Assembly: GCA_048939765.1 (NCBI GenBank) | Contig: JBHLPF010000058.1 | Coordinates: 1 to 13,509, forward strand | DNA length: 13,509 nucleotides | Source: Promethearchaeota archaeon | GTDB lineage: Archaea > Asgardarchaeota > Thorarchaeia > Thorarchaeales > Thorarchaeaceae | Direction: 5' to 3' | Shown here: positions 1 through 13,509 of the stretch, piece after piece | Numbering within the stretch: the first letter of the stretch is position 1 | Layout: every line of letters starts with the position of its first letter | Notes under the pieces: generated by a model | What the model saw: the letters and a program-made list of their open reading frames with translations, nothing else | Told to the model about the DNA's origin: nothing | Database searches by the model: none | Position numbers and translations under genes: made by a program

Positions 1-737
1 TGCCCTCCGACAATCTTGAGGTATGCATCCTCAAGGTCCTCGGTTTTCGTGGAAGCCACGATCTCCTCAGGAGACCCGACTGTCACGAGAACGCCCTCGT
101 TGATTATGCCCACAATGTCACAAACATCCTCTGCAAAGGATGTCTGGTGTGTACAGATGAAGAAGGTGGTTTCAGTTTCTTCAGCGAGGACGAGGATAAG
201 GTCCTTGACAAGTGCTCCAGCACCTGGATCAAGCCTAGATGTGGGTTCATCTAGGAACACGAGCTTCGGCTCGTGAAGAATCGTGGACGCGACAAGGACC
301 TTCTGTTTCATTCCACTTGAGTATGTGTCAAGGAGATCATCCTGACGGCCCTCAAGTCCTAGCATGGTCAACAGACTGTCAATTCGCTTCCTGAGTGACT
401 CGCCCTCTAGGTTGTTCAACGCCCCTATGAACTCGAGGAACTCAATGGCTGTAAGCTTTGAGTAGAGACCAGGGGTTTCGGGCAGGAGGCCAGTCATAGA
501 CTTGATCTCTCCTGCCTTCTTGACTATATCCAGCCCTAGTACTGTTGCAGTGCCACTCGTGGGCCTCATAAGCCCAGAGAGCATGCGCACTGTGGTCGTC
601 TTGCCTGCACCGTTTGGTCCTAGGAAGCCGAAGCGACCTCCCGAGGCGACTTCAAGATCGAGGTTTCTGACTGCCTGGATTGGACCAAAGGTCTTGTTCA
701 GTCCCAAGGTCTGAATGGAGATGCCGTTATTACTCAT
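1..737 (-). CDS. ABC transporter ATP-binding protein (ABC-2/DrrA-like exporter ATPase), 3' end truncated by the window edge
   Basis: Not in the ORF track because it has no stop in the window. Manual translation from ATG 737 gives MSNNGISIQTLGLNKTFGPIQAVRNLDLEV...GFLGPNGAGKTTT (Walker A)...YSSGMKQ (signature)...VFLDEPTSRLD (Walker B/D-loop)...ICTH (H-switch)...AYLKIVGG. The frame is open to base 1. SD GGAGGTG lies at 746-752. It is colinear with the paralog at 2436-3206. Confidence 0.95.
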   Translation of the reverse strand, partial: MSNNGISIQTLGLNKTFGPIQAVRNLDLEVASGGRFGFLGPNGAGKTTTVRMLSGLMRPTSGTATVLGLDIVKKAGEIKSMTGLLPETPGLYSKLTAIEFLEFIGALNNLEGESLRKRIDSLLTMLGLEGRQDDLLDTYSSGMKQKVLVASTILHEPKLVFLDEPTSRLDPGAGALVKDLILVLAEETETTFFICTHQTSFAEDVCDIVGIINEGVLVTVGSPEEIVASTKTEDLEDAYLKIVGG

Positions 738-742
738 TCACT

Positions 743-2431
743 TTACACCTCCACCTTTCCTAGGCTCCTGACACCAAGATACAACATTAGGCCACCTACG
801 AAGAGTAGTAGCGTGGGCCCCATGAGCATCTCAACAGCCATGAACCCGTCAATTCCGAGAACATTTTCAAAGAACCTGAATAGGTTAAAGCCAAGTCCCA
901 TGTCTAGGAATATTGCTGCAAAGAGAGGCCCGATGAGTGTGAATTGCGTCAGCATCATAGAGGTTATCAAGACTGTCTGATGTGCAGACGACTTAGTGTC
1001 CTCATAGTTAGGATTCTGAGCTGTCACTCCCATGCTCACCATCACTGCTCCGCAGACCGTGACAAAGGCTGCGCAAAAGATCTGAATTGCTGTCAGAAGA
1101 GACAGGCTGAACATGAAGAACATTGCAATGGTTGGCGCCAGACTGAGAGGAATAGCCATCATGAAGCCTGTTGCAACACGTGCTCTCATGAAACGAGATG
1201 CTCCCTTTGGTGCGCTGCGAATGATCCAGAGCTGGTCCTTTGACTCAAGGAATCCCGTGCCAGCGAATGGAAGGACACCCACTACGCCAATCATGATGCT
1301 TATCATAGGCAGGATCTCAGTTGCTTCAAACACCTCTCCCTCCATGACGGTCATCTGCTGGATTAGAATTGGAAGTATTATAGCCAGGACGACTCCATAG
1401 AGTATCTTGGAAATGTTCTGTGCCTTCCGACCAAAGTCCTTTAGACTCACAACTGTAAGGGCACCAAAGGGACCCTTTGCAGCACTACGAATGCCTCGGA
1501 TGAATATATTCTCACGGCCAACAGTTGTGACGGTTTCGGTCCTCACTCCTGCACTTATCGTGAAGACTCTATCAGCTGCTGCGATTGCAATAGGCACGAA
1601 TGCCAGACCGAACGCAGCCATCAGCAGAGCACTTGTCAGCATGTCAAGCTGGAGGATTGCACCAAAGCCGAGAATCTGAGATCCGGTCAGACCGATTCCG
1701 TTGAATGTGATGGTAACCCAACTAACCAAATCAGCAGGCCAGGTAAAGGGCATTACTAGGAATGCGTTGATTCCGAGGATGCCTGACAGCTGTGGCATGA
1801 AGAACATCAGACCATACATAGGTACGATGACTATGAGTGCAATCACAAATGAGAGCGCTTTCGCAATGTCGTTGCCTCGTGAAGAGTCTCCAAGCCTTGC
1901 TTGAATCACTGATGTGAGGAAGTTCGATAACCAGATGGTCGATATTACCATCAGAGCGATTACAATGTATACCAATGCCTGACCGACGATTGAAACCTCA
2001 AAGGCAAGCATGAAGGGGGAAATCAATAATGGGGCAAAGACCATTACAATCAGCCCGTACAAGGGCATCTTGCCAACGAAAGTCCCAGTCAGAATGTCCC
2101 TAGTCTTCACATTGTTAGACAGGAAGATCTCCCACTGTCCAATCTTAATCTCTTGCAGAGAGTATGAGAGGGGGTACAATAGTAGAAGTGCCCATAGAAA
2201 GAGCATCACTGTCCGCATAAGTCCTGGAAACATCACCATCAATAGTGTGCGAATGGTTTCCATTGGAATAATCAGTTGAATGAATGTATTGATTATCAAC
2301 GGAGCTAGGTAGATAGCCCATATTGTTGCTAATGCAAACATCAGACCGACTATCGCCTTTCTGTGTTTCCGCATACCAGCCGTTAGTACAAAGAACTCAG
2401 CCTTTGCGATATGATACCACTTACGTGTCAT
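743..2431 (-). CDS. Large polytopic ABC exporter permease (~562 aa, two ABC-2-like membrane halves)
   Basis: About 13-14 hydrophobic segments, lying between two ABC ATPase genes. The start is moved from the track's 2485 to ATG 2431 (MTRKWYHIAKAEF), which follows a GGAGGTGA SD at 2436-2443 containing the upstream stop. 'IAKAEF' and the mid-protein 'SLKDFGR' resemble the amphipathic 'K(E/D)' N-terminal helix of ABC-2 permease halves. Confidence 0.85.
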   Translation of the reverse strand: MTRKWYHIAKAEFFVLTAGMRKHRKAIVGLMFALATIWAIYLAPLIINTFIQLIIPMETIRTLLMVMFPGLMRTVMLFLWALLLLYPLSYSLQEIKIGQWEIFLSNNVKTRDILTGTFVGKMPLYGLIVMVFAPLLISPFMLAFEVSIVGQALVYIVIALMVISTIWLSNFLTSVIQARLGDSSRGNDIAKALSFVIALIVIVPMYGLMFFMPQLSGILGINAFLVMPFTWPADLVSWVTITFNGIGLTGSQILGFGAILQLDMLTSALLMAAFGLAFVPIAIAAADRVFTISAGVRTETVTTVGRENIFIRGIRSAAKGPFGALTVVSLKDFGRKAQNISKILYGVVLAIILPILIQQMTVMEGEVFEATEILPMISIMIGVVGVLPFAGTGFLESKDQLWIIRSAPKGASRFMRARVATGFMMAIPLSLAPTIAMFFMFSLSLLTAIQIFCAAFVTVCGAVMVSMGVTAQNPNYEDTKSSAHQTVLITSMMLTQFTLIGPLFAAIFLDMGLGFNLFRFFENVLGIDGFMAVEMLMGPTLLLFVGGLMLYLGVRSLGKVEV

Positions 2432-2435
2432 CACT

Positions 2436-3206
2436 TCACCTCCAAGCCAAGAGAGATTCGCGGTCGACCTTGCCACCGACAACATTCAGGTATGCATTTT
2501 CCAGATTCCTCGCTCCAGCTGCTTCAATGATGTCGTGAGGTGCACCCTGTGTGACAATCTCACCCTTGTTGAGGATTGCAATGACATCACAGACATCTTC
2601 TGCAAAGCTGGTCATATGAGTGCAGATGAAGAAAGTCGTGTCTGTTTCCTCAGCAAGGACTAGAATCAAGTCCTTGACTACAGCGCTGGCACTGGGATCG
2701 AGCCGTGATGTAGGTTCGTCAAGAAAGACTACCTTTGGCTCATGTAGAAGTGTCGAGGCGACAAGGACCTTTTGCTTCATGCCTGATGAGTAAGACTCCA
2801 GCAAGTCGTCCTGCCTGCCCTCAAGTCCCAGTATACCAAGTAGGCTGTCAATGCGTCTGTGCACACCATCGCCATTCCTACCGTTGAGTGCTCCAATAAA
2901 TTCAAGGAACTCAACAGCAGACAGCTTCGAGTAAAGACCAGGGGTCTCCGGGAGCAGACCTGTAATTGCCTTGATGGCGTCGCGATCTTTGCTAACATCC
3001 ATGCCGCATACTTCGGCATATCCGCTAGTCTGTTTTAGTAGACCGGAGAGAATACGGACTGTGGTTGTCTTTCCAGCTCCGTTAGGACCAAGGAAGCCGA
3101 ACCTGCTGCCCGACATCACCTTTAGGTCTAGGTTACTTACGGCTCGAACAGAGTCGAATGACTTGTTCAGCCGCTCGGTTCGAATTGTTATTCCGTTTCT
3201 AGCCAA
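2436..3206 (-). CDS. ABC transporter ATP-binding protein (ABC-2/DrrA-like exporter ATPase)
   Basis: Walker A GPNGAGKTT, signature YSSGMKQ, Walker B VFLDEPT, H-switch ICTH. The likely start is TTG 3206: GGTGA precedes it and it aligns with Met1 of the paralog (LARNGI vs MSNNGI). The track's GTG 3215 is the alternative. Confidence 0.95.
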   Translation of the reverse strand: MARNGITIRTERLNKSFDSVRAVSNLDLKVMSGSRFGFLGPNGAGKTTTVRILSGLLKQTSGYAEVCGMDVSKDRDAIKAITGLLPETPGLYSKLSAVEFLEFIGALNGRNGDGVHRRIDSLLGILGLEGRQDDLLESYSSGMKQKVLVASTLLHEPKVVFLDEPTSRLDPSASAVVKDLILVLAEETDTTFFICTHMTSFAEDVCDVIAILNKGEIVTQGAPHDIIEAAGARNLENAYLNVVGGKVDRESLLAWR

Positions 3207-3267
3207 CTTGCTCACCGAAATTATGATGCAGTAAATGTTTACCGCAATCTATGTAAACAATCACCAC

Positions 3268-3287
3268 ATTTATATATAAATTTTCCC
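3268..3287 (-). promoter_or_regulatory. Archaeal BRE+TATA promoter for the ABC exporter operon
   Basis: The minus strand reads GGGAAAA-TTTATATA (purine-rich BRE directly before a TATA box), about 60 nt upstream of the ATPase start. ATTTATATATAAAT (3268-3281) is palindromic. Confidence 0.65.
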
Positions 3288-3303
3288 AAGTACGTAGTGA
3301 AGA

Positions 3304-3332
3304 ATTACCCGAAAGCTTTATAGCTGGGTAAT
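3304..3332 (+). promoter_or_regulatory. BRE+TATA promoter of the regulator/bPH operon, bracketed by the inverted repeat ATTACCC-N15-GGGTAAT
   Basis: CGAAAG-C-TTTATAG at 3310-3323, about 35 nt upstream of ATG 3357. Perfect 7-bp arms at 3304-3310 and 3326-3332. Confidence 0.6.
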
Positions 3333-3356
3333 GACGAAAACAGTGAGGATAAGAAG

Positions 3357-3929
3357 ATGCTACTCTCAGTTCACGAAGCAACGGTCTGGTGGGAATTCCA
3401 GCAGGGAAAGACCACTGGAGAGATTGCAAGTGACTATGAGGGTCACGTAGTAGCTCCTAAATACGTCCATGCACTTTTCGAACAGTCTGAGAAGAGATCC
3501 GAGAGAGAAGGCATAGAGGACGTGCAACTCAAGGACACCCAGTATGTGTCAAGAGTTCTCAATAGAGCAAGAAGCAAGATTGAGAAGGCGCTCAGAGACC
3601 AAGCTAAGAGTCATCGGCTTGATATTGAAACCGTTCAAGACTACAAGGGGCTGTTGAGAGGATTCGACTACCAGGCAAACACAGAGGTCTACATCATCTA
3701 TACAATGAAGCTTGGCGTTGTGGTCTGGTATAAGCACGACTCCTATGCCGGCAAGCTCTGTCCGGATTGCCCGAAGCGGGAGGAGTGCCGTGAAACCCTT
3801 GATGCCATTATGACTGAATACAATATTACGCTGCGACCAGACGAGGAACAGCTCTACATGACGGAACAGTCCATTGCCATCTTCAACAAACTCGCTGCTA
3901 AAGAAGTACCGAGGTATAAGAGAGGATAA
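3357..3929 (+). CDS. Putative transcriptional regulator: sigma70-region-4/LuxR-like HTH plus C-terminal Cys cluster (H...CxxCx5C)
   Basis: LSVHEATVWWEFQQGKTTGEIA and TQYVSRVLNRARSKIEKAL match the 'L..re..v......G.s..EIA...VS..l.RA..Kl' HTH pattern. The C-terminal part contains WYKH...CPDCPKREEC. GAGG SD upstream. It is the first gene of a divergent operon. Confidence 0.7.
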   Translation: MLLSVHEATVWWEFQQGKTTGEIASDYEGHVVAPKYVHALFEQSEKRSEREGIEDVQLKDTQYVSRVLNRARSKIEKALRDQAKSHRLDIETVQDYKGLLRGFDYQANTEVYIIYTMKLGVVVWYKHDSYAGKLCPDCPKREECRETLDAIMTEYNITLRPDEEQLYMTEQSIAIFNKLAAKEVPRYKRG

Positions 3930-3945
3930 TGGAGAGTTGTGAAGA

Positions 3946-4698
3946 TTGGGTCGGGACTATGAAGGGAAATTAATCAGGCCACCAATGGAAACAGTGGCTT
4001 ATGGAAAAGTGTTCAAGCCGGCGGCGGCATTGAGGAACAAGTACTGGTTCATTGTGATAGTGACCCTGGTGACCATGTATGCAATAACCGCGGGAACATT
4101 CCTGGGGCTCTTCTACTTGCTATTCATGTTCGACAGCGAACTCTTTCAGTTCTCAGTTTGGCTGGATGTGATGTGGACACCGATCAACTTCTGGTTCTGG
4201 ACGATATCTTTAATCATAGTTGTTCCCGTGTTCGTGTTGATTCCGATCTACCTCAACAGGTTTGAGTACTCGGTCAGAGGTGAGTCAGGGAAGTCACTGC
4301 CTGAGATATACGTCAAGAAGGGACTCATTGATGTCACAGAGAAACATGTGCCATTGAGAACTATTACAAACATAGCTAGCAAGACCGGCCCCTTCGACAG
4401 GCTCTTCGGAATCGGCAATGTTGAGATTCATACTGCCGGCTACTCTGGTGGACCTTACGAAGGGGGAAAGCCTGAGGAGAAGATAGAGGGCATAGTATTC
4501 TATCAGGAGCTTCGGGACTTCATCCTGAGTGAAATGCGAAGTCTCAAGGGCACCTATGCAACCGCGACTGAAGTGCCTACAGAACAAGACGACACTATTC
4601 GTGTGGGTTCAATAGAGGAAGCAACACTAGTCACATTGCAAGACCTTCGTGATGTACTACGAAGAATAGAAGACAAACTTGACAGGAGTGGAATATGA
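3946..4698 (+). CDS. bPH_2 (YdbS-like, bacterial PH domain) membrane protein, copy 1
   Basis: Two TM segments, then EYSV...EIYVKKGLIDVTEKHVPLRTITNIASKTGPFDRLFGIGNVEIHTAG, which matches the PF03703-type pattern 'G......p..rI..v....gp..R.fG.g.v.i.TAG'. C-terminal helix LQDLRDVLRRIEDKL. TTG start after GGAGAG. Confidence 0.88.
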   Translation: MGRDYEGKLIRPPMETVAYGKVFKPAAALRNKYWFIVIVTLVTMYAITAGTFLGLFYLLFMFDSELFQFSVWLDVMWTPINFWFWTISLIIVVPVFVLIPIYLNRFEYSVRGESGKSLPEIYVKKGLIDVTEKHVPLRTITNIASKTGPFDRLFGIGNVEIHTAGYSGGPYEGGKPEEKIEGIVFYQELRDFILSEMRSLKGTYATATEVPTEQDDTIRVGSIEEATLVTLQDLRDVLRRIEDKLDRSGI

Positions 4699-4699
4699 G

Positions 4700-5467
4700 A
4701 TGGGAACCTATTATGACGAGAGAGTAATCAAGCCCCCGATGGAAAGGATAGCCAGTGGAAAGATCTTCAAGCCATCTAGGTCCTTCATCTTCAAGGGCTG
4801 GCTTCAGTCTATCATGTTCTTTGTAATCTGGTGGATTGTCGGAATGACTGCTTGGACTGGCCTGTCATTCATAATCTTGGTGTTCGATAGAGGCTTGACG
4901 CCTCTTCAACATGCCCAATACATGGGTACATGGTGGTGGCTAGTGAACATGTGGTATTGGGGCGTAGCCTGCCTCATTCTTGGTGTCTTTTTCACGGTTT
5001 GGGCCGTGTATGTCCTAAAGATTGAGTACTCGATTCTTGCAGAATCAGGAAGAGCAATGCCAGAGATCTATGTAAAGAAAGGCGTTCTCACTGTGACTGA
5101 GAAGCATGTGCCCTTCAGAACAATAACTTCCATCTTTTCAAAGAAAGGTGTGTTTGACAGGTTGTTCGGGATCGGAAGTGTTGAGATTCAGACTGCTGGA
5201 ATGACGGGAGGGTCATCCCCTGGCGGGTTCCAAGCAAAACCAGAGGAGAAACTCGAGGGGTTGCCATATTTCAACGAACTCCGCGATTTCATTCTTAGGG
5301 AACTCCGTAGATTCACAGGTCAATACGTAACCGGTACTGAGGTAGTCACTTCTCAACAGGAGGATACACTTGCAGGACTTGGACAAGGAGAGATATTGCG
5401 GACTCTGCAAGACATGCGTGACATCCTCAGGAGAATGGATGAAAAGCTTGACAGGAGGGATATCTAA
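4700..5467 (+). CDS. bPH_2 (YdbS-like) membrane protein, copy 2
   Basis: Same architecture (EIYVKKGVLTVTEKHVPFRTITSIFSKKGVFDRLFGIGSVEIQTAG). The start is moved to ATG 4700, 1 nt after the copy-1 stop, with AGGAG SD at 4684-4688. Confidence 0.88.
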   Translation: MGTYYDERVIKPPMERIASGKIFKPSRSFIFKGWLQSIMFFVIWWIVGMTAWTGLSFIILVFDRGLTPLQHAQYMGTWWWLVNMWYWGVACLILGVFFTVWAVYVLKIEYSILAESGRAMPEIYVKKGVLTVTEKHVPFRTITSIFSKKGVFDRLFGIGSVEIQTAGMTGGSSPGGFQAKPEEKLEGLPYFNELRDFILRELRRFTGQYVTGTEVVTSQQEDTLAGLGQGEILRTLQDMRDILRRMDEKLDRRDI

Positions 5468-5468
5468 G

Positions 5469-6230
5469 ATGAGTGATAGCAAAGTAATCAAACCCCCAAT
5501 TGAGGAGATCAAGAGCGGAAAGGTGTTCAGACCTGCTACAGCATTTGTATACAAGGGCTGGCTTGGAGCAATTCTGGGAGCAATAGGATTTTGGGCCCTT
5601 GCAATGGTTTCATGGCTGGGAACAGCATATCTCATAATCGTTTTTGACACTGGAACGACGTTTGCCAATTATCTCGTTTACCTAGATACTTGGTGGATTC
5701 CTGTCAACTTCTGGTGGTGGGTTCTAAATGCATTCTGGTTGATTCCTGCTATTCTCATATGGCCCTTCTATGTAAAGAGGTTCGAGTACTCAGTGATAGC
5801 TCATTCCGGTGAAACAATGCCGGAGATTTATGTCCGCAAGGGAATCATCACGGTCACTGAGAAACACGTGCCATTTCGAACAATAACGAATATCTCAAGC
5901 AAGGCGGGCCCCATTGATAGACTCTTCAAGATTGGAAGTGTTGAGATTCAGACAGCAGGCTATTCTGGAGGAGCTCAAGCTGGAGCCAAGCCTGAAGAGA
6001 AGCTAGAAGGGCTCCATATCTTTGAGTCCGTGAGGGACTTTGTACTAAGGGAGCTTAGAAGATTCACAGGCCAGTATGCCACCGGGACCGAAGTGGTTGC
6101 GCCTACTGATAAACCAGTGCAAAGAATGGATGACACGCTACAAGACGAAATACTAATCACACTACGGCAGATTAGAGATAAGATGGGTTCACTAGATGAA
6201 ATCTTGGACCTTCTTAAGAAAAAGGCATAG
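5469..6230 (+). CDS. bPH_2 (YdbS-like) membrane protein, copy 3
   Basis: Same architecture. The start is moved from the track's 5370 to ATG 5469 (MSDSKVIKPP), 1 nt after the copy-2 stop, with AGGAGG at 5453-5458. It aligns with the paralog N-termini. Confidence 0.88.
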   Translation: MSDSKVIKPPIEEIKSGKVFRPATAFVYKGWLGAILGAIGFWALAMVSWLGTAYLIIVFDTGTTFANYLVYLDTWWIPVNFWWWVLNAFWLIPAILIWPFYVKRFEYSVIAHSGETMPEIYVRKGIITVTEKHVPFRTITNISSKAGPIDRLFKIGSVEIQTAGYSGGAQAGAKPEEKLEGLHIFESVRDFVLRELRRFTGQYATGTEVVAPTDKPVQRMDDTLQDEILITLRQIRDKMGSLDEILDLLKKKA

Positions 6231-6242
6231 GCGAGTCAATGC

Positions 6243-6965
6243 ATGAGCGGTGAAGGGAAATTAATCAAACCCCCAATTGAAGAAGTGAAGAGCGGCAAGG
6301 TGTTCAAGCCATCGAAGGCTTTCCGCACCAAGAACTGGGTCCTTATGATTTTTATAGCAGTGGGGATCTGGGTGATGTTCATTTCCATCATGCTTGGAAT
6401 TGGGTATCTCGTGTTTGGCCTAACTGGACAGCCAGGATTTCAGGGCTGGGTCGATGTGTTCTGGGACGTCATCAATCCTTGGTACTGGCTGCTGACTGCC
6501 ATTTGGTTCATCCCTGCCTTCATCCTCTACCCGATCTACATCAATGCATTCGAGTATTCAGTCATTGCGGAGTCAGGTGAAACGATGCCTGAGATATACG
6601 TGAAGAAAGGTCTCATCAACATCACACGCAAGCACGTTCCCCTGAGAACGATAACCAACATCTCAACTCGTGCAGGTCCATTTGACCGCATCTTTGGAAT
6701 TGGCACCGTTGAGGTGGAAACAGCTGGAGCCTCAGGACCACAAGTCGGGGGATCAGCGGAGGAACGGCTGGAAGGTTTGGTCTTCTATGAAGAACTCCGT
6801 GACTTCATCCTACGCGAATTGCGCAGATTCAAGGACCCCTATGTAACCGGGACAGAGGTCGTAATCCCAGAGGATGAGAAGGTCATCAGAGTGGGCAGTT
6901 CAATAGAAGAAGAGGTCCTCAAGGTGCTTGAAGATATCCGTAATCTTCTCAGGGATCGTAGCTGA
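6243..6965 (+). CDS. bPH_2 (YdbS-like) membrane protein, copy 4
   Basis: IKPPIEEVKSGKVFKP N-terminal motif, 2 TM, EIYVKKGLINITRKHVPLRTITNISTRAGPFDRIFGIGTVEVETAG, C-terminal helix VLKVLEDIRNLL. Confidence 0.88.
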   Translation: MSGEGKLIKPPIEEVKSGKVFKPSKAFRTKNWVLMIFIAVGIWVMFISIMLGIGYLVFGLTGQPGFQGWVDVFWDVINPWYWLLTAIWFIPAFILYPIYINAFEYSVIAESGETMPEIYVKKGLINITRKHVPLRTITNISTRAGPFDRIFGIGTVEVETAGASGPQVGGSAEERLEGLVFYEELRDFILRELRRFKDPYVTGTEVVIPEDEKVIRVGSSIEEEVLKVLEDIRNLLRDRS

Positions 6966-6976
6966 GAGGGAGTACT

Positions 6977-7729
6977 ATGACTGAGGAATCTGCTCGCGTC
7001 ATCAAGCCCCCAAGCGATGAGTTTGAGAGTGGAAGAATCTTTAAGCCTCTTCCATCCCTTCGGCACAAGAAATGGCTGAAGTTCATCTTGGCTGCGTTCG
7101 CATTCTATGGCGTTTTCCTCTTTGCGTTTTTTGGCCCTCCAATTGTGACAGTATTTGTGATTGAGTTCATCCCCCTCAACCTCTATCTTCCTATGGACAG
7201 CTGGATTGTCGGAAGCCAGATCTATTGGCTGATAGCTCCATTTTGGTTAATTCCAGCGCTAATCTGGGTTCATCTCTATGTGAGGAGCATCGAGTATTCT
7301 GTAGTTGGTTGGCAGGGAGAAACAATGCCGGAGATCTACCAGAAGAAGGGCATCATCACGATAACGAAGAAGCATGTGCCATTCAAGAATATCACCCACG
7401 TGAAGAACAGAGTGGGGATATTTGATAGAATGTATGGGATTGGCTGTGTGAAGGTAGAAACAGCTGGTGAGAAAGGGGGGATGCAAGCCACGGGGGTATT
7501 GACGCTTATTATTTCGCGACTATATTCTTCCAGTTCCGAAGAAAACATAGAGGGCATCCGATTCCATGAGGAACTGAAGAGATTCATTCTGAAAGAGATG
7601 CGCGGATTTGGCAAAGCTCCTCATGTTTCCAGGGGAAGAAGAGTCACGTCCAAGGGTCTCTTCACAGAACGTACCCTGCGGGCCTTTCAAGATGTCAGAG
7701 ATGCGCTAAGAACTGAAGCACAAAGGTGA
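6977..7729 (+). CDS. bPH_2 (YdbS-like) membrane protein, copy 5 (most divergent)
   Basis: IKPP...SGRIFKP, 2 TM, EIYQKKGIITITKKHVPFKNITHVKNRVGIFDRMYGIGCVKVETAG. It has an extra hydrophobic loop insertion and a basic C-terminal linker. GAGGGAG SD upstream. Confidence 0.85.
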   Translation: MTEESARVIKPPSDEFESGRIFKPLPSLRHKKWLKFILAAFAFYGVFLFAFFGPPIVTVFVIEFIPLNLYLPMDSWIVGSQIYWLIAPFWLIPALIWVHLYVRSIEYSVVGWQGETMPEIYQKKGIITITKKHVPFKNITHVKNRVGIFDRMYGIGCVKVETAGEKGGMQATGVLTLIISRLYSSSSEENIEGIRFHEELKRFILKEMRGFGKAPHVSRGRRVTSKGLFTERTLRAFQDVRDALRTEAQR

Positions 7730-7735
7730 ATGGTA

Positions 7736-7825
7736 ATGCGAGCTATGAAGTATGTATTGGCACTATTATTGGGATTGTTGATGTTTTTCTTCTTCCTGGC
7801 ACTCTACCTCTCAGGACTTCTTTAA
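7736..7825 (+). CDS. Small single-pass membrane protein (29 aa, MRAMKYVLALLLGLLMFFFFLALYLSGLL)
   Basis: Below the ORF-track cutoff. AGGTGA SD (7724-7729) contains the copy-5 stop and lies 6 nt before ATG 7736. In-frame ATGs also occur at 7730 and 7745. A basic N-terminus is followed by 24 uncharged, mostly hydrophobic residues. It fills the gap to the convergent gene ending at 7829. Confidence 0.6.
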   Translation: MRAMKYVLALLLGLLMFFFFLALYLSGLL

Positions 7826-7828
7826 CAC

Positions 7829-8380
7829 TCAGTAGGTAAAGCCGAGAGGAACCGGGGGAGTAGTGATTAGTGCTTCTCCGTTGTCCCAGACGACGTGGAC
7901 TCTGGCATATAGATCAATGCCCTCCTCAAGGTCAGGGGAGTATATTGTTTCACGGTCGTTAGTAAACTGAATGAGATGCGAGCTGTTTGAGGGCACGGTG
8001 AACTCGTCGAAACAACAGGTAAGGCCTGGCTGAATCTTGAATGTGTGTAGGACGTTTCTACTGCCGCCAAAATAGACTGTGACAACGCGGACATCCAGCC
8101 CAAACACAGTTGTATTGGCGTGATTAGTCGCATTTATGCGGATCACTAGATAGAATGGAGGGCCCTCAGGAGGAATTTCAGGCATGAAATCTTGCCAAAA
8201 GTAAGCAGTAGCAGTTAGCTCGAGATTATCTACAATCACAGGTTCAACAGCCTGTGAAGGGGGTTCGTCTGGAGGCGCTACAGGAGGAATGAAGTCAGAG
8301 AGAAAGACAATGCTGCCTGCAACAAGCACCACTAGTACTACGATAAATGCAGACTCACCACGTGACGGTTTCATCATCAT
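7829..8380 (-). CDS. Hypothetical membrane-anchored/exported protein (N-terminal TM, Pro-rich linker, beta-rich domain)
   Basis: AFIVVLVVLVAGSIVFL anchor, then PPVAPPDEPP linker, then alternating beta-strand-like segments (FWQDFMP..PP.GPP, LVIRINATN). The start is probably one of the tandem ATGs at 8380/8377/8374; the track's start is 8401. Confidence 0.75.
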   Translation of the reverse strand: MMMKPSRGESAFIVVLVVLVAGSIVFLSDFIPPVAPPDEPPSQAVEPVIVDNLELTATAYFWQDFMPEIPPEGPPFYLVIRINATNHANTTVFGLDVRVVTVYFGGSRNVLHTFKIQPGLTCCFDEFTVPSNSSHLIQFTNDRETIYSPDLEEGIDLYARVHVVWDNGEALITTPPVPLGFTY

Positions 8381-8432
8381 CTCAAACAATATCGGTTTCA
8401 AAAGGTATTGACCCTTCCGAAATAGCAGCTAA

Positions 8433-9269
8433 TTACAGACTGATGTGAAGACTATCAGTGATTCTGACGAAGTTGAGAAGACTTTTCTCAGCTGCTTCAC
8501 GTGGGCGGACTTCAAAGACATAGAGTGCAGGTTTCTCCAATCCAGCCAGAAGACGCAGCGGACGCTCAAAGTATATCGAGCCATCTCCGACTATTTGATG
8601 CTCGCCGTATAGGTCGCTTCGATCATGGACATGAACGACTTCTATGGCATCTTTGTGTCTCTCAAAAACAGCCCAGTCATCTTCGTCAAGCTTGGGCGCG
8701 TAGAGTTTTGGGATATCAAGGCAAAGCTTCAGGCCTCTTGGAACCATTTTGTCGATTGCTTTGCGTACTATTGGATTCCAAAATGAGTTTTCTAGAACGA
8801 TATTCGCATGAACTCTGGAGTGAGTGATAAGGGCGTCTAGGGTATCACATAATGTTTGGAGATATAGGTCAGAATGATTCTCAGTGAAATCACATTTCCT
8901 GGCTTTCGCCTGCTTGAATGAGGGAGGAGTTCCTGCGTGGAGAACAATGTTGGTTCGGGTCTTGCTCAAGTCACGTGCAAAGTCAATTATGTCTCGGAAG
9001 TACTCAAGAATCGCATTTCTGATGGTCGGGTAGGTGCATAGTAGGTTCACGTCATCCCCCGGCGCATGAAAGCCCCATTCAATTCCTAGTTCATGTGACC
9101 TCTGACGCAGCTGCATTCGTTCATAAAACGCGACCTTCTCAGGAGATAGTTCCGGTACACCAAAATCAGGCACAATTCCATTCCAGACTGTTCCCGACGC
9201 ATAGTCTAAAGCCTCATGTAGAGATGTATTGTAGACCATATGGTAAGCGCGCCTTTGGGGGAGTGGCAT
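8433..9269 (-). CDS. Sugar phosphate isomerase/epimerase family protein (xylose-isomerase-like/AP-endonuclease-2 TIM barrel)
   Basis: Motifs HAP..D.NL, VLHAG, VLEN, CLD, HVHD, H...G.G.I and FE occur in the order expected for the family. Confidence 0.85.
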   Translation of the reverse strand: MPLPQRRAYHMVYNTSLHEALDYASGTVWNGIVPDFGVPELSPEKVAFYERMQLRQRSHELGIEWGFHAPGDDVNLLCTYPTIRNAILEYFRDIIDFARDLSKTRTNIVLHAGTPPSFKQAKARKCDFTENHSDLYLQTLCDTLDALITHSRVHANIVLENSFWNPIVRKAIDKMVPRGLKLCLDIPKLYAPKLDEDDWAVFERHKDAIEVVHVHDRSDLYGEHQIVGDGSIYFERPLRLLAGLEKPALYVFEVRPREAAEKSLLNFVRITDSLHISL

Positions 9270-9319
9270 ATTAGGACTGAGAGAACCAGTTCTTATGAGA
9301 GTGTTTGGTTTCTACACAC

Positions 9320-9688
9320 CTACATCTTTGTGCTGCGCCATTGAGTAAGGAGGTCTTCTGAGTTGACTTTGAAGTAGGGATGGCCGACATCGGAAACTCC
9401 GAGATCGCATTTTCCATTTTCAATGCCCGATAGCTCAAAGAAGGCAACGCCGTCTTTCTCGGTCGACTCATTCACTGTGAATAGCTCACCTGATGGGAGT
9501 CGTACCATGAGATTTACTTCAGCCATGTCAATAGGTCTCTTGAGCCTATCAACAATACGGACAGCAACTCGGATTCTGCTCGACGATGGAGAATAGAGCT
9601 TCAGTAGATCAACTGATTCAACGTACATGGTGTCTTTGAATGGCGTACTTTCAGACTCCGCGGCAGCGTCACGCTTCTGATTGCTCAT
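9320..9688 (-). CDS. Stand-alone Ig-like beta-sandwich domain protein (122 aa)
   Basis: The pattern VRIVD...PI..AEV.L.V..PSG.......TEKDGVAFF......GK....V resembles Big_1/carboxypeptidase-regulatory-like Ig folds. No signal peptide or TM. GAGG upstream. Confidence 0.65.
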   Translation of the reverse strand: MSNQKRDAAAESESTPFKDTMYVESVDLLKLYSPSSSRIRVAVRIVDRLKRPIDMAEVNLMVRLPSGELFTVNESTEKDGVAFFELSGIENGKCDLGVSDVGHPYFKVNSEDLLTQWRSTKM

Positions 9689-9736
9689 CCCAGTCTGCCT
9701 CAGCGGAGAAACCTCTCCAACTTGAAACCTTGATGA

Positions 9737-9754
9737 GTTATAATATAACCTTTG
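9737..9754 (-). promoter_or_regulatory. Probable BRE+TATA promoter for the 9688 gene and downstream genes
   Basis: The minus strand reads CAAAG-GTTATATTATAAC, about 50 nt upstream of ATG 9688. GTTATA-A-TATAAC (9737-9749) is dyad-symmetric. Confidence 0.5.
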
Positions 9755-9882
9755 TTTAGTTTTCTACCACAGTTTGGTGGTTTTTACTAGAAATGCTTCT
9801 TTGCAGAGACTCGTAATCGAATGTGATTTTCTGTTGAGGGTGAAGGATTGAAGTGATTGCCATTATGGTATATCTCTGATGT

Positions 9883-10602
9883 CTAGTCACGAAGAATTGC
9901 ATCATTTTTGCCCTTCACAGCTAGATGTATTGCTGCCAGTCCAAGTGTCATTTGTTGGGATACTACTCTGGAAAAACCTGCATCACGAAGAATTGTTTCT
10001 AGCTCCTCCACATGATAGAATCGCAGGACTGTATAGGATAGATATGCATAGCCTGCCCTTGATCCAGATATCAGACTCCCGAGTGATTTGACAGTGAGTC
10101 GAACATATAGATGGAATAGCCAGCGTACTAAGCGAGATTGAGGCTGACTCGTTTCTAGGTTGAGGAAGCGTCCACCTGGTCGCAACACACGTCTGAACTC
10201 CCGGAGATATTCCAAGAGCGACTCTCTGTTCTTGTTGATATTGCGTGTGGCAAAGGAGATTGTGACTAAGTCAAACGAATTGTCGGGATACGGGAGTCGT
10301 TTGACATCAGCGAGTGTCATTTCAATTCTCGACGCTTCATGCTTACTTGCAGCCATGCGTGTCATTGGAAGTGAGAAGTCTGCTGTAATGACATCAGCAA
10401 TACCTTTCGATGCTCTCTGAAGATATGCAGCTGTTTCACCTGTACCACTGCAGACATCAAGCCATCTGGAGCCACCGCCTCTAACTGCAATACGCGCCGC
10501 CTTTCTACGCCAAAGCACATCGAAGCCGAATGTCAGGATGTGGTTGATGAGCTCATAGGTATGGGATACTTGGGAAAAGATGCGTTGGACTCCCTTGCTC
10601 AT
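9883..10602 (-). CDS. ubiE: Ubiquinone/menaquinone biosynthesis C-methyltransferase, UbiE/MenG family
   Basis: F..VS..YELINHILTFGFD..WRR N-terminal motif, SAM motif I LDVCSGTG, DFS..M, LPYPDNSFDLVTISFATRN, RVLRPGG, LE.SQP, YAYLS.TV..F. Confidence 0.88.
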   Translation of the reverse strand: MSKGVQRIFSQVSHTYELINHILTFGFDVLWRRKAARIAVRGGGSRWLDVCSGTGETAAYLQRASKGIADVITADFSLPMTRMAASKHEASRIEMTLADVKRLPYPDNSFDLVTISFATRNINKNRESLLEYLREFRRVLRPGGRFLNLETSQPQSRLVRWLFHLYVRLTVKSLGSLISGSRAGYAYLSYTVLRFYHVEELETILRDAGFSRVVSQQMTLGLAAIHLAVKGKNDAILRD

Positions 10603-10717
10603 TTCAGTTCTGCAACTCAGTTGTGATGGTGGGATGGTGAAACAGGGGCTCTAGATGAACCTACTGATAGAACGAATCATGGGGATGTGGTTAACGCCTC
10701 GATGTTCAACGCGGCTG

Positions 10718-11086
10718 TCAACACTTGCTGCAATCGCCTGTCTTCATCACGATTATTTTTGCGTCTTCAGCTATGTCTCCAAATACCTGATTGAAATAGC
10801 GTGCGGCTTCGATATAGCCTGCTATACCAGCTTCCGTCAATCTATAGACTCTCTGACGCCCTTCCTTTTCACTCTTGACAGTACCCCGATCCTCTAGATC
10901 TTTGAGAGCTGGATAGATAGTGCCTGGCGTGGGCTTTGTTCCTCGCCGCATAGCAATCTGTTCTGCAATCTGCTGCCCATTCAGTGGACCGTTTCGAAGC
11001 TCCCATAAAATCTGGAATGTGAGCATACCTCGCATATCACAGCAGTCTGGAGGGCAGCATTGCTCATTCTCACTATCCTCTGTCAC
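10718..11086 (-). CDS. PadR-family winged-helix regulator with Cys-rich termini (~122 aa)
   Basis: MRGMLTFQILWEL...PLNGQQIA...PTPGTIYPALKDLE..G.V......RQRVYRLTEAG is a PadR signature. The track's start (11242) overlaps arsM and the promoter. The likely start is GTG 11086, about 25 nt downstream of TTTAAA (11111-11116), implying a leaderless transcript. Confidence 0.9.
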   Translation of the reverse strand: MTEDSENEQCCPPDCCDMRGMLTFQILWELRNGPLNGQQIAEQIAMRRGTKPTPGTIYPALKDLEDRGTVKSEKEGRQRVYRLTEAGIAGYIEAARYFNQVFGDIAEDAKIIVMKTGDCSKC

Positions 11087-11092
11087 ATATAA

Positions 11093-11164
11093 TATCGGGT
11101 GTCCGATACATTTAAATGTATATGTAGGACGCCCGATATACTGTAGTGTATTGGACATCCAATA
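11093..11164. promoter_or_regulatory. Divergent padR/arsM promoter with three 16-bp palindromic operator copies and a palindromic TATA element
   Basis: TATCGGGTGTCCGATA (11093-11108), TGTAGGACGCCCGATA (11123-11138), TATTGGACATCCAATA (11149-11164). ATACATTTAAATGTAT is a perfect 16-bp palindrome at 11106-11121. Confidence 0.8.
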
Positions 11165-11177
11165 AAAGGTGAAAGTC

Positions 11178-11978
11178 TTGACAGAGATGAAGAAAGTCAG
11201 TGAGATGTCATCGGAAGAGATCAAAGATGCCGTAAAGGACACTTATTCCAAGGTTGCTCAACCAGCGGCTAGTAGCTGCTGTGGTCCAACTGAAACGGAA
11301 CAAGCAGCCTCTGATTGCAGAACAGCCGAATGTGCTCCTCCTGGTAATATACGAACATCCTATGCAGAATCCCTTGGCTATTCAGTGAAAGACATGCCAG
11401 AGTCAGCGACAGAGTCGTTTGCAGGATGTGGTAATCCCGTAGCCATCGCTAGCCTCAAAGAAGGAGAAGTAGTCCTAGACTTGGGGAGTGGAGCTGGACT
11501 AGACATGTTCCATGCCGCAAGGAAGGTTGGCGATACCGGTCGAGTGATAGGTGTCGATATGACTCCAGCGATGATCGAGAAAGCGAAGCTTGGAGCAGAG
11601 GAGCTGGGGCTTGAGAATGTCGAGTTCAGATTGGGTGACATAGAAGACCTGCCAGTGGAGGACAGCTCTATAGATGTCGTCATCAGCAATTGTGTCATCA
11701 ACCTCGCACCTGACAAAGGCCAAGTGTTCCGTGAGGCGTACAGAGTCCTTCGACCAGGCGGAAGAGTCATGGTTTCTGACATAGTTCTTGAAGCCAATTT
11801 GCCGGAAAAGGTCCGTGACGAGATAGCCAACTATACAGGTTGTCTTGGGGGTGCCATTCTCGAGGAGGAGTATCTCCAGCATATGCGCGATGCAGGATTC
11901 GAGGGAGTGGAAGTCGTCAGCAAGACTGGTTTCGGTCGATCATCCAGTGCAAAGATTGCGGCATACAAACCCAAGTAA
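11178..11978 (+). CDS. arsM: Arsenite S-adenosylmethionine methyltransferase
   Basis: IKDAVKDTY..VA, SSCCG, GCGNP.AIA.LKEGEVVLDLGSGAGLD, IGVDMTPAM, DVVISNCVINL.PDK, RVLRPGG...SD, GCLGGA. The catalytic Cys positions of ArsM are present. The start is probably TTG 11178 after AGGTGA (11167-11172); GTG 11169 and ATG 11187 are alternatives. Confidence 0.93.
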   Translation: MTEMKKVSEMSSEEIKDAVKDTYSKVAQPAASSCCGPTETEQAASDCRTAECAPPGNIRTSYAESLGYSVKDMPESATESFAGCGNPVAIASLKEGEVVLDLGSGAGLDMFHAARKVGDTGRVIGVDMTPAMIEKAKLGAEELGLENVEFRLGDIEDLPVEDSSIDVVISNCVINLAPDKGQVFREAYRVLRPGGRVMVSDIVLEANLPEKVRDEIANYTGCLGGAILEEEYLQHMRDAGFEGVEVVSKTGFGRSSSAKIAAYKPK

Positions 11979-11986
11979 GAAAAAAC

Positions 11987-12142
11987 ATGAGATGTGATGA
12001 AGTCACTTCAAGCAGCAATTGCTGTGCAGATTTCGATTCAGACAGTACAACATCCAATATGGCAAATTGCATGGCAACAGCGTCGCCTTGTCGGCATTGT
12101 GATGACTTTGATCTGTTAGAAGTCGGGCTTTGCGTCATCTAG
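11987..12142 (+). CDS. Possible Cys/Asp/Ser-rich small protein (51 aa)
   Basis: ATG lies 8 nt after the arsM stop. MRCDEVTSSSNCCADFDSDSTTSNMANCMATASPCRHCDDFDLLEVGLCVI has 7 Cys including CC and CxxC. There is no clear SD, so it may be non-coding. Confidence 0.3.
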   Translation: MRCDEVTSSSNCCADFDSDSTTSNMANCMATASPCRHCDDFDLLEVGLCVI

Positions 12143-12241
12143 AATATAGCAGGCATAGGTGAACTGCCTCCTGCAATAGCTAATCGTCCTTTGCAAAGCT
12201 CTGCAGAGTTGCGTTCCCTTTTGAGAAATTGAGTACTGTTG

Positions 12242-13456
12242 CTACTCTGAACTGACAAACTCCACAGCATCGTCGTCACAGATTACAGCACACAGCCCAC
12301 AGCCATCACACTTCTCTGGATTAACAACTGCCTTGCCCTCTCGCATCTGAATTGCTAGATATCCTCCGTCTGCACACGCAATAACGCATTTCTTGCATCC
12401 AGTGCATTTGTCCGAAATCACAGACGCTGTAACTGGTGAAAGCTTGCTAAGGGCCTCCCATGTAGTTATCTTGGGCAAGGCTTTGCCGACAACCTCATCG
12501 ATACTGGCATAACCCTTACGTTCCATGAAGGAATCTAACCCCACTGTCATGTCCTTGATGATGCCAAATCCGTACCACATGGCTGCTGTGCACACCTGCA
12601 GTGTCTTTGCACCTGCCATTAGATACTCAGTAGCGCTTCTCCAGTCTTCAATTCCTCCGATTCCAGAGATTGGAGTTTCAGGCAAGGCACGAGCAATCTG
12701 AGAAACGAACCGAAGACCTATTGGTCGCACAGCAGGACCGCAGAAGCCGCCATATGTGCTGAGCTGCTCCTCCAGATTCGGTCCATAGGCAATAGGCATT
12801 GGTGTTGCAGTTTCAACATCGATTCCTATGAGAGACTCTATGGTGTTGATGGCAGATAGCGCATCGGCTCCCCCTCTCACAGCGGCCCCCGCTATTGGAA
12901 TCATATCTGTGACATTGGGAGTGAGCTTCACTAGCAATGGGAGATCGGTCCCTTTTCTTGCCCCCTTGGTCACGGCCTCGACGAGTTCGGGATTTTGCCC
13001 TATAAAAGCGCCCATATGCTTCTCAGGAGAACCGTGTGGACAAGACACGTTCAGTTCAATTGCATCCACCCCCGTCTGAGTCATCGTTTCTGCAAGTTTC
13101 GTCCATCCATCAGGATCAGGGCTGCTCATGATGCTCGAGATAAGCACAAAATCCTCTGGAGCCTCTCGCTTGAGTTTGGGAATCCACTCATCAGTCCAAG
13201 TCGACAGAGATTTTCGAGATAAGAGTTCTATGTTGTTCATTCCGATTGGAGAGCCTTCTCTTCTTAGCACACCCAGTCTTGTGCGTGGATCTACCGTTGG
13301 TTCCTCTGTGACTGTCTTGAAGACCGCACCGCCCCACCCGAGCTTTGCTGCTCGAAGCATATGCCGTGCATCCATTGTAGGAGGAGCCGATGAAAGCATG
13401 AATGGATTCTTGAAACTGATTCCTGCAAACTCTAAAGAAAGCCTATCTGTGGACAT
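12242..13456 (-). CDS. preA: NAD-dependent dihydropyrimidine dehydrogenase subunit PreA (DHOD-like FMN barrel + 2x[4Fe-4S])
   Basis: NPFMLSSAPPT, GWGGAVFKT, GMNNIEL, ELNVSCPHG (catalytic Cys), VKLTPNVT, AINT, GG..GPAVRPI, SGIGGI..W, QVCTA.M..GF. Two C-terminal CxxCxxCxxxC motifs. GGAGG SD at 13467-13471. Confidence 0.92.
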   Translation of the reverse strand: MSTDRLSLEFAGISFKNPFMLSSAPPTMDARHMLRAAKLGWGGAVFKTVTEEPTVDPRTRLGVLRREGSPIGMNNIELLSRKSLSTWTDEWIPKLKREAPEDFVLISSIMSSPDPDGWTKLAETMTQTGVDAIELNVSCPHGSPEKHMGAFIGQNPELVEAVTKGARKGTDLPLLVKLTPNVTDMIPIAGAAVRGGADALSAINTIESLIGIDVETATPMPIAYGPNLEEQLSTYGGFCGPAVRPIGLRFVSQIARALPETPISGIGGIEDWRSATEYLMAGAKTLQVCTAAMWYGFGIIKDMTVGLDSFMERKGYASIDEVVGKALPKITTWEALSKLSPVTASVISDKCTGCKKCVIACADGGYLAIQMREGKAVVNPEKCDGCGLCAVICDDDAVEFVSSE

Positions 13457-13509
13457 CTCTCTGAATCCTCCAACACTGAGGCTGTAGACAGCCCTCCCCT
13501 AAAGTCTTT

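Follow-up and report, generated by a model that had tools for sequence, protein, structure and literature searches.

A cysteine-armed PadR protein as a candidate arsenic-responsive repressor of arsM in Asgard archaea

Most ars operons are controlled by repressors of the ArsR family, which have evolved several different cysteine sites (PMC11868830, 2025). The known As(III) sensors use three cysteine thiolates, often including vicinal pairs on terminal arms, such as Cys15/16 of CgArsR or Cys95/96/102 of AfArsR (PMC11868830). A survey of arsenic genes in Asgard archaea does not discuss regulators (PMC10060404), and we found no description of a PadR-type or AbrB-type arsenic regulator in the literature that we searched. 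Here we describe a padR-type gene that is divergent from arsM, the gene for the S-adenosylmethionine methyltransferase of As(III), on contig JBHLPF010000058.1 of a Promethearchaeota archaeon (family Thorarchaeaceae; assembly GCA_048939765.1). (We analyzed positions 1 to 13,509 of this contig, and we call this whole stretch the window.) From its sequence and its relatives, we think that the PadR protein is probably a thiolate-based, As(III)-responsive repressor that controls arsM.

The PadR protein and its linkage to arsM

Characterized short members of the PadR family respond to drugs, to phenolic compounds or to oxidative stress, and some have no known ligand. Our literature searches turned up none that is linked to arsenic genes. 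The protein described here is encoded on the minus strand (10718..11086; 122 amino acids from a GTG start). In a longer, 146-residue form of the protein, residues 50-111 match the PadR family model PF03551 with 48.1 bits (cut-off 27). In the 122-residue form, the PadR domain is residues 21-116 and is preceded by a 20-residue arm. Homologs can be aligned along the whole protein. Against the ArsR/SmtB model NF033788, the protein scores just 28.3 bits, below the cut-off of 55, and a genome-wide scan for ArsR gave 27.5 bits at this locus, which is also under the cut-off. There is a weak similarity to Penicillinase_R as well (24.1 bits).

The predicted structure agrees with this assignment. The AlphaFold2 model of the monomer has a mean predicted local distance difference test score (pLDDT) of 84.9 and consists of a winged helix-turn-helix followed by one long C-terminal helix. 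(The helices are residues 19-30, 37-48, 54-66 and 85-116, and the strands are residues 70-75 and 78-83.) The top matches from Foldseek are TA0346, Rv3488, Cth-833, RosR and LmrR, with a probability of 1.00 and template modeling (TM) scores of 0.6-0.8. A profile search also groups the protein with short PadR proteins. Overall, it belongs to the short PadR subtype, like LmrR and Rv3488, and not to ArsR/SmtB.

The divergent gene, arsM, is on the plus strand (11178..11978; 266 amino acids from a TTG start) and is present in a single copy in this genome. Its product scores 300 bits against NF008823, above the cut-off of 263. When aligned to solved ArsM structures, it keeps all four catalytic cysteine positions, and the AEC, GCGNP, SNCVINL and GCLGGA positions of 5evj are conserved.

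We then asked how widely the two genes are linked. Scanning one genome per species yielded 231 relatives, and we used the best 80 loci (51-97% identity), which span Thor-, Hermod-, Hod- and Bathyarchaeota as well as Methanomethylicota. (The close homologs are named as Thorarchaeota or Promethearchaeota.) A full-length, divergent arsM (45-94% identity) lies directly upstream of padR in 76 of the 80 loci, and in another one (L070) arsM is truncated. In the remaining three loci, its place is taken by a tRNA, a DinB-like gene, or a nitroreductase. In a census of the neighbors of these loci, no other gene was conserved and no other ars gene was found beside the pair, so padR-arsM appears to be a self-contained module of two genes.

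The presence and absence of the two genes also track each other within families. Of 400 genomes of the phylum, 216 contain arsM, and the arm motif of PadR (CCPPxCCDMRG, discussed below) is limited to two families, f1 and f14. Family f1 includes 54 genomes with arsM as well as the motif, 22 without either, eight with arsM alone, and one with the motif alone, at a contig end. In f14, 18 genomes have both and one has neither. Because these genomes are related to one another, we give the counts as a description and not as a statistical test. The preliminary description of this locus had asked whether the cysteine motifs co-occur with arsM, acr3 or arsC; the association with arsM is borne out, and no other ars gene was seen beside the pair.

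Small cysteine-containing genes also occur around the pair. In the window, a 51-amino-acid reading frame with eight cysteines (11987-12142, plus strand) begins 9 nt past arsM. It begins with MRCDEV and contains NCC and CRHC, it is kept downstream of arsM in the close relatives L001-L003 and L005-L007 (40-67% identity), and it could encode a small thiol peptide or a chaperone. In many Thorarchaeota loci, a different reading frame of 40-47 amino acids is inserted between padR and arsM, as the leading gene of the arsM transcript. It has the motifs ...SCQ(S/L)SCG... and, at the end, ...NP.K.V(I/V)(I/V). (These loci are L017, L019, L020, L022, L025-L027, L030, L031, L033, L039-L041, L047, L073, L077 and L080.) A stand-alone N-terminal segment of ArsM with a CC motif is found in L008, L025, L040, L041 and L071.

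The cysteine arm of PadR

The 122-residue protein has six cysteines: C10, C11, C15 and C16 in the arm (CCPPDCC at residues 10-16), and C119 and C122 at the C terminus. This is the arrangement given in the preliminary description, with EQCCPPDCCDM at residues 8-18 and DCSKC at residues 118-122. The codons for CCPPDCCDMRG (residues 10-20), which we propose as the thiolate sensor site, are at 11028..11059 on the minus strand. In an alignment of 92 homologs (57-84% identity), the positions without any variation are C10, C11, P13, C15, C16, D17, M18, R19 and G20, whereas the arm varies freely at residues 2-9.

The conservation of the arm is at the level of protein. A degenerate DNA pattern for CCPPxCCDMRG was found in 74 of the 400 genomes, in a single copy in each except for one genome with two copies, each of which has an arsM beside it. 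In the window, the pattern falls precisely on the arm codons given above. (As a control, the reversed pattern had no matches in the 400 genomes.) The matching sequences use both TGT and TGC for cysteine and all four CCN codons for proline. This synonymous variation indicates that selection acts on the protein, and judging from these codons, the arm is translated.

The two groups of cysteines are not equally conserved. All four arm cysteines, within seven residues, are present in 77 of 78 loci. In contrast, within the last 10 residues, 42 of the 78 loci have at least two cysteines, 15 have one, and 21 have none, and 14 loci have no cysteine outside of the arm. Because 21 loci lack any cysteine in the tail, DCSKC (10721..10735, minus strand) is not part of a universal site. 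Across these sequences, the arm is the universal element, and the DCSKC pair in the window is an accessory of the Thor clade. Conservation of the cysteines, on which the preliminary description depended, was therefore confirmed for the arm and not for the C-terminal pair, which is restricted to one clade.

The start of the gene matters because a later start would remove the arm. The open reading frame that holds the PadR domain runs from 10718 to 11242 on the minus strand, and translation from the GTG at 11086 gives the 122-residue product. The related loci have ATG or GTG at this position. Cys16 comes exactly 15 codons after the start codon in 54 of 78 loci, and the start codon is 7-8 nt past the nearest operator core (see below) in 56 of 78 and 24-26 nt past a TATA hexamer in 55 of 62. 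The last spacing fits a leaderless archaeal mRNA, and padR is probably translated from one. For arsM, positional homology sets the start at the TTG at 11178 (MTEMKKV...), which is 5 nt after a Shine-Dalgarno sequence, GGTGA. From these two starts, the shared intergenic region is 11087-11177, or 91 bp, in line with the estimate of about 90 bp in the preliminary description.

Three other starts for padR were rejected. A 174-residue form, from the GTG at 11242, would overlap arsM, and its extra part is merely translated promoter DNA. Similarly, the extension in the 146-residue form, from the ATG at 11158, merely translates the operators. (The extension has an apparently conserved "IGHPI", which is explained by the conservation of the DNA palindrome itself.) Finally, a start at the methionine of MRGML, which the preliminary description had named among the things that would refute the proposal, is contradicted by the invariance of the arm upstream of that methionine in homologs, by the synonymous codons, and by the spacing of the start.

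The arm could have another role: it might be a structural zinc or iron-sulfur site or might contact DNA, and the effector, if there is one, might bind elsewhere, for instance at an interface formed by the C-terminal helix as in LmrR. The presence of LmrR-type proteins among the fold matches fits this, and so do Y97, F98 and F102 in the C-terminal helix, which are invariant among homologs. However, the arm is the only cysteine-bearing element that is common to all members, and its composition shifts with the neighboring gene in paralogs. We consider a structural or DNA-contacting arm hardly probable.

The paralogs illustrate this shift. An exhaustive profile search returned 184 cluster representatives with E below 1e-10, and their arms vary. 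Divergence from arsM persists in two proteins with about 48% identity. One of them, P0124, has a CCPPPECC arm, and the other, P0125, retains just the second cysteine pair in its arm (PPTCC). (The contigs around P0126 and P0142 are too short to show an arsM further upstream.) A paralog with a single cysteine adjoins a glyoxalase-family gene, and a cysteine-free paralog has housekeeping neighbors. In P0131 (4001-4456 in L116 and L117), a 25-residue arm that is rich in cysteine and histidine precedes DMRG. P0131 is upstream of, and divergent from, a small open reading frame, after which come genes for an HMA/YHS P-type ATPase and for a YHS protein. From this context, P0131, a member of the same PadR subfamily, may sense copper or a heavy metal.

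If so, the subfamily seems to include sensors for other metals, and the CCPPxCC arm might itself sense Cu(I), Cd, Zn, Hg or Bi with a CopY-like metal-thiolate cluster. In this case "arsM" would be a methyltransferase for a broader range of metals and metalloids. Among solved structures, the closest relative of our protein is Rv3488, which is said to bind cadmium; the titles of its PDB entries say only "in complex". But the CCPPxCC clade is tied to arsM and not to metal pumps, and the arsM product is above the cut-off of the curated arsenite methyltransferase model and keeps the As-binding cysteines. Sensing of another metal by this arm seems quite improbable to us.

The shared promoter and a proposed mechanism

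The 91-bp promoter contains 16-bp palindromes (consensus TATYGG-RYRY-CCRATA) that flank a TATA box. Candidate operator O1 (TATCGGGTGTCCGATA, 11093..11108) lies between the TATA box and the start codon of padR. It is followed by a palindromic TATA element (ACATTTAAATGT, 11108..11119, with TTTAAA at 11111-11116), which is conserved in related loci and is a candidate for a bidirectional archaeal promoter core. Candidate operator O2 (TGTAGGACGCCCGATA, 11123..11138) is on the arsM side of the TATA box and matches 14 of the 16 consensus positions. Candidate operator O3 (TATTGGACATCCAATA, 11149..11164) is just before the ribosome-binding site of arsM.

These sites are conserved and are nearly confined to this kind of promoter. 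Within 160 bp upstream of the padR start, at least one 14-bp operator core is found in 75 of the 80 loci, and at least two are found in 59. There are 137 cores in about 13 kb of promoters, versus 26 in 694 kb of flanking DNA. The window has two operator matches, versus 0.03 expected. When we scanned the organism's own genome (3.37 Mb) with a position weight matrix, the best site was O3 (28.0 bits), followed by O1 (26.3 bits), and the next site had just 14.3 bits. So, in this genome, which is 88.5% complete, no strong site was seen beyond the padR-arsM promoter. (The 28 matches to a looser pattern, ATYGG-N4-CCRAT, in the genome lack the RYRY core and were rejected as further sites.) As far as an 88.5%-complete genome shows, the regulon is arsM and padR.

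What about ArsR? The preliminary description noted that no arsR is visible in the window. This holds for the window, where no ArsR/SmtB gene was found and the only match on the contig is PadR itself, below the cut-off. It does not hold for the genome, in which two true ArsR genes and two ACR3 genes lie outside of the window. One acr3-arsR pair forms an operon on contig C94 (59587-60919; locus L107 1080-2541, minus strand), and its ArsR has 98 amino acids, with a CxC (in GEQCQCD) where the classical site is expected. The second ACR3 is on C2 and the second ArsR is on C69. The existence of an ArsR-ACR3 operon elsewhere suggests that PadR is specific to arsM. From this arrangement of genes, efflux appears to be under the control of ArsR and methylation under the control of PadR.

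We propose the following mechanism. PadR would act as a dimer that represses the divergent arsM and padR itself, and nothing else. Without an inducer, PadR dimers would sit on the three 16-bp palindromes. With O1 and O2 on either side of the TATA box and O3 over the arsM leader, both promoters would be shut: the occupied operators would exclude TATA-binding protein (TBP), transcription factor B (TFB) and RNA polymerase in both directions. The flexible CCPPDCC arm, directly before helix 1 of the winged helix, would be the sensor. Three of its four thiolates would chelate As(III), and probably Sb(III) as well. Chelation would fold the arm onto the DNA-binding domain, PadR would leave the DNA, and arsM and padR would be derepressed.

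Several points weigh against this mechanism. First, the AlphaFold2 model, which is of an apo monomer, shows disorder in residues 1-17 and in the last few residues, so the geometry of coordination cannot be read from the model. Second, four clustered cysteines could equally well hold Cu(I), Cd, Zn or Hg, or be joined in disulfides. Third, enzymes of the ArsM family are reported to methylate other metalloids too. Fourth, eight genomes of family f1 have arsM without the exact motif pattern; these may include variant motifs or contig ends. And fifth, given the ArsR with a CxC motif beside ACR3, one has to explain why there would be a second sensor for As(III); its threshold might differ, for example, or it might sense another species of arsenic, such as MAs(III).

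This last point leads to another explanation, in which the arm of the arsM repressor senses ArsM's product, methylarsenite (MAs(III)), either alone or together with As(III). Methylation would then be under product-dependent or threshold control, apart from the ArsR-ACR3 efflux circuit. With a canonical ArsR-ACR3 pair elsewhere in the genome, the two circuits may divide the labor, and the arsM-linked P0125 does keep just one CC pair in its arm. Also, there are ArsRs that select MAs(III) with two cysteines, and both species elicit a response from a related ArsR (PMC11868830). On the other hand, 77 of 78 loci have four cysteines, more than MAs(III) needs, and it would be strange control logic for a methyltransferase to be induced solely by the toxic compound that it makes. 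We view sensing of MAs(III) as unlikely, and we continue to favor As(III) as the ligand of the PadR arm.

Other candidate regulators beside arsM and comparison with known systems

If the cysteine arm of PadR senses arsenic, what accompanies arsM in Asgard families that lack the CCPPxCC PadR? We sampled 32 arsM loci from such families. In 27 of them, arsM adjoins an AbrB/SpoVT, MarR or PadR protein with CC...CC, CCC/CSC or CCPGCC.

The most common neighbor, in 21 of the 32 loci, is a SpoVT/AbrB-related protein of about 90-100 amino acids that is encoded directly upstream of arsM on the same strand. Its N-terminal arm is rich in cysteine (usually CC-x5-8-CC, with one cysteine pair in some), and there is often a second CC in the C-terminal half. 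The protein from L127 passes the cut-off for PF04014 (33.3 bits versus 24.7), three others that we scanned were below the cut-off or had no match, and the remaining ones were assigned by their similarity to L127. (The genes are at L124 2850-3137, minus strand; L125 1694-1972, plus strand; L127 2886-3176, minus strand; L132 3043-3333, minus strand; and 17 more within L124-L155.) These proteins are candidates for a second kind of non-ArsR arsenic regulator.

Another five of the 32 loci have a MarR protein beside arsM with CCC or CSC in its helix-turn-helix. The motifs are ACCCS or GCSCS, plus a downstream NCC. (MarR-type loci include L131 2988-3467 and L134 4100-4600, both on the minus strand, and L138, L139, L146 and L147.) In the one remaining case, a PadR that is divergent from arsM has CCPGCC at its C terminus instead of its N terminus (L130 2992-3441, plus strand). 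AbrB, MarR and PadR have in common that they adjoin arsM and have vicinal cysteines, and we regard this as the strongest indirect evidence that the cysteine arm is a metalloid sensor.

The same comparison bears on whether the vicinal cysteines are instead a redox switch, which would form disulfides in response to oxidative or thiol stress rather than sensing a metalloid. Vicinal cysteines are redox-active, and one of the closest structures is RosR, a PadR-like protein from haloarchaea that regulates the response to oxidative stress. But arsM is the sole conserved target, the hosts are anaerobic archaea from sediments, and the same CC motifs are seen again on AbrB and MarR proteins, specifically where these adjoin arsM. 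We consider a redox switch very unlikely.

More broadly, the CC-x3-8-CC peptide might be a portable arsenic-sensing module that was placed on at least three unrelated scaffolds and that replaces ArsR for the control of arsM in Asgard and TACK archaea. Going by the sequences, it would be on the N- or C-terminal arm of PadR, on the N-terminal arm of AbrB/SpoVT, or in the helix-turn-helix of MarR. This proposal is tentative, and we would put its chances at slightly below even.

The other genes in the window are as follows. The genes that flank the pair are conserved only in the closest relatives: a UbiE/MenG-type methyltransferase (9883-10602, minus strand) and, on the other side, a PreA-like subunit of dihydropyrimidine dehydrogenase with two 4Fe-4S motifs (12242-13456, minus strand; 441.7 bits for NF006183). 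Further away, at 3946-7729 on the plus strand, are five tandem paralogous genes for proteins of about 240-286 amino acids, one of which matches bPH_2 (bacterial PH domain). They are preceded by the gene for a 190-residue protein without a Pfam match (3357-3929). Finally, at 3-3215 on the minus strand, paralogous genes for ABC ATPases (3-737 and 2436-3215) surround the gene for a 580-residue polytopic membrane protein (743-2485).

If our interpretation of PadR is correct, then this would be the first arsenic-responsive repressor with another fold in prokaryotes, and the AbrB and MarR parallels would extend the story of convergent evolution past one family. It would also open a way to learn how the decision to methylate arsenic is made in anaerobic archaea, which abound in arsenic-bearing sediments. 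The control of arsenic methylation in archaea bears on the mobility of arsenic and on the geochemistry of rice paddies and seeps. If the module is portable as well, then methylation would be regulated apart from the efflux controlled by ArsR, possibly with another threshold or another selectivity for arsenic species, and this would matter for understanding when anaerobes methylate arsenic, and why. As a compact pair of regulator and operator with a defined 16-bp site, the system could be used in the design of biosensors. And it offers a readable example of Asgard promoter architecture, with a palindromic TATA box between operators and a putatively leaderless mRNA for the regulator.

How does this PadR compare to known regulators? 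In the proposed mechanism, it resembles the ArsR/SmtB repressors (R773 ArsR, AfArsR, CgArsR1 and ArArsR) in being a small, dimeric, autoregulated winged-helix repressor of an ars gene. As in CgArsR and AfArsR, the proposed sensor has at least three thiolates, with vicinal pairs on a flexible terminal segment (PMC11868830). Unlike ArsR/SmtB proteins, it has all four cysteines within seven residues of one arm, a different operator, an archaeal promoter in which the operators flank the TATA box, and arsM as its only predicted target.

With LmrR, Rv3488, TA0346 and RosR, it shares the fold and a length of about 110-120 amino acids, and its candidate operators are palindromic like theirs. What sets it apart from these short PadR members is the arm: the alignments to the solved chains begin after it, at about profile position 14-19. 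There is also a resemblance to the CopY/BlaI type, in which a cysteine-rich terminal segment is joined to a winged-helix repressor. In CopY, a C-terminal CxCx4CxC binds Cu(I) or Zn, and the protein controls copper ATPases, whereas in our PadR the motif is an N-terminal CCPPxCC and the target is arsM. Based on these comparisons, the Asgard PadR appears to represent a kind of arsenic sensor that has not been described before, with thiolate metalloregulation on a new scaffold.

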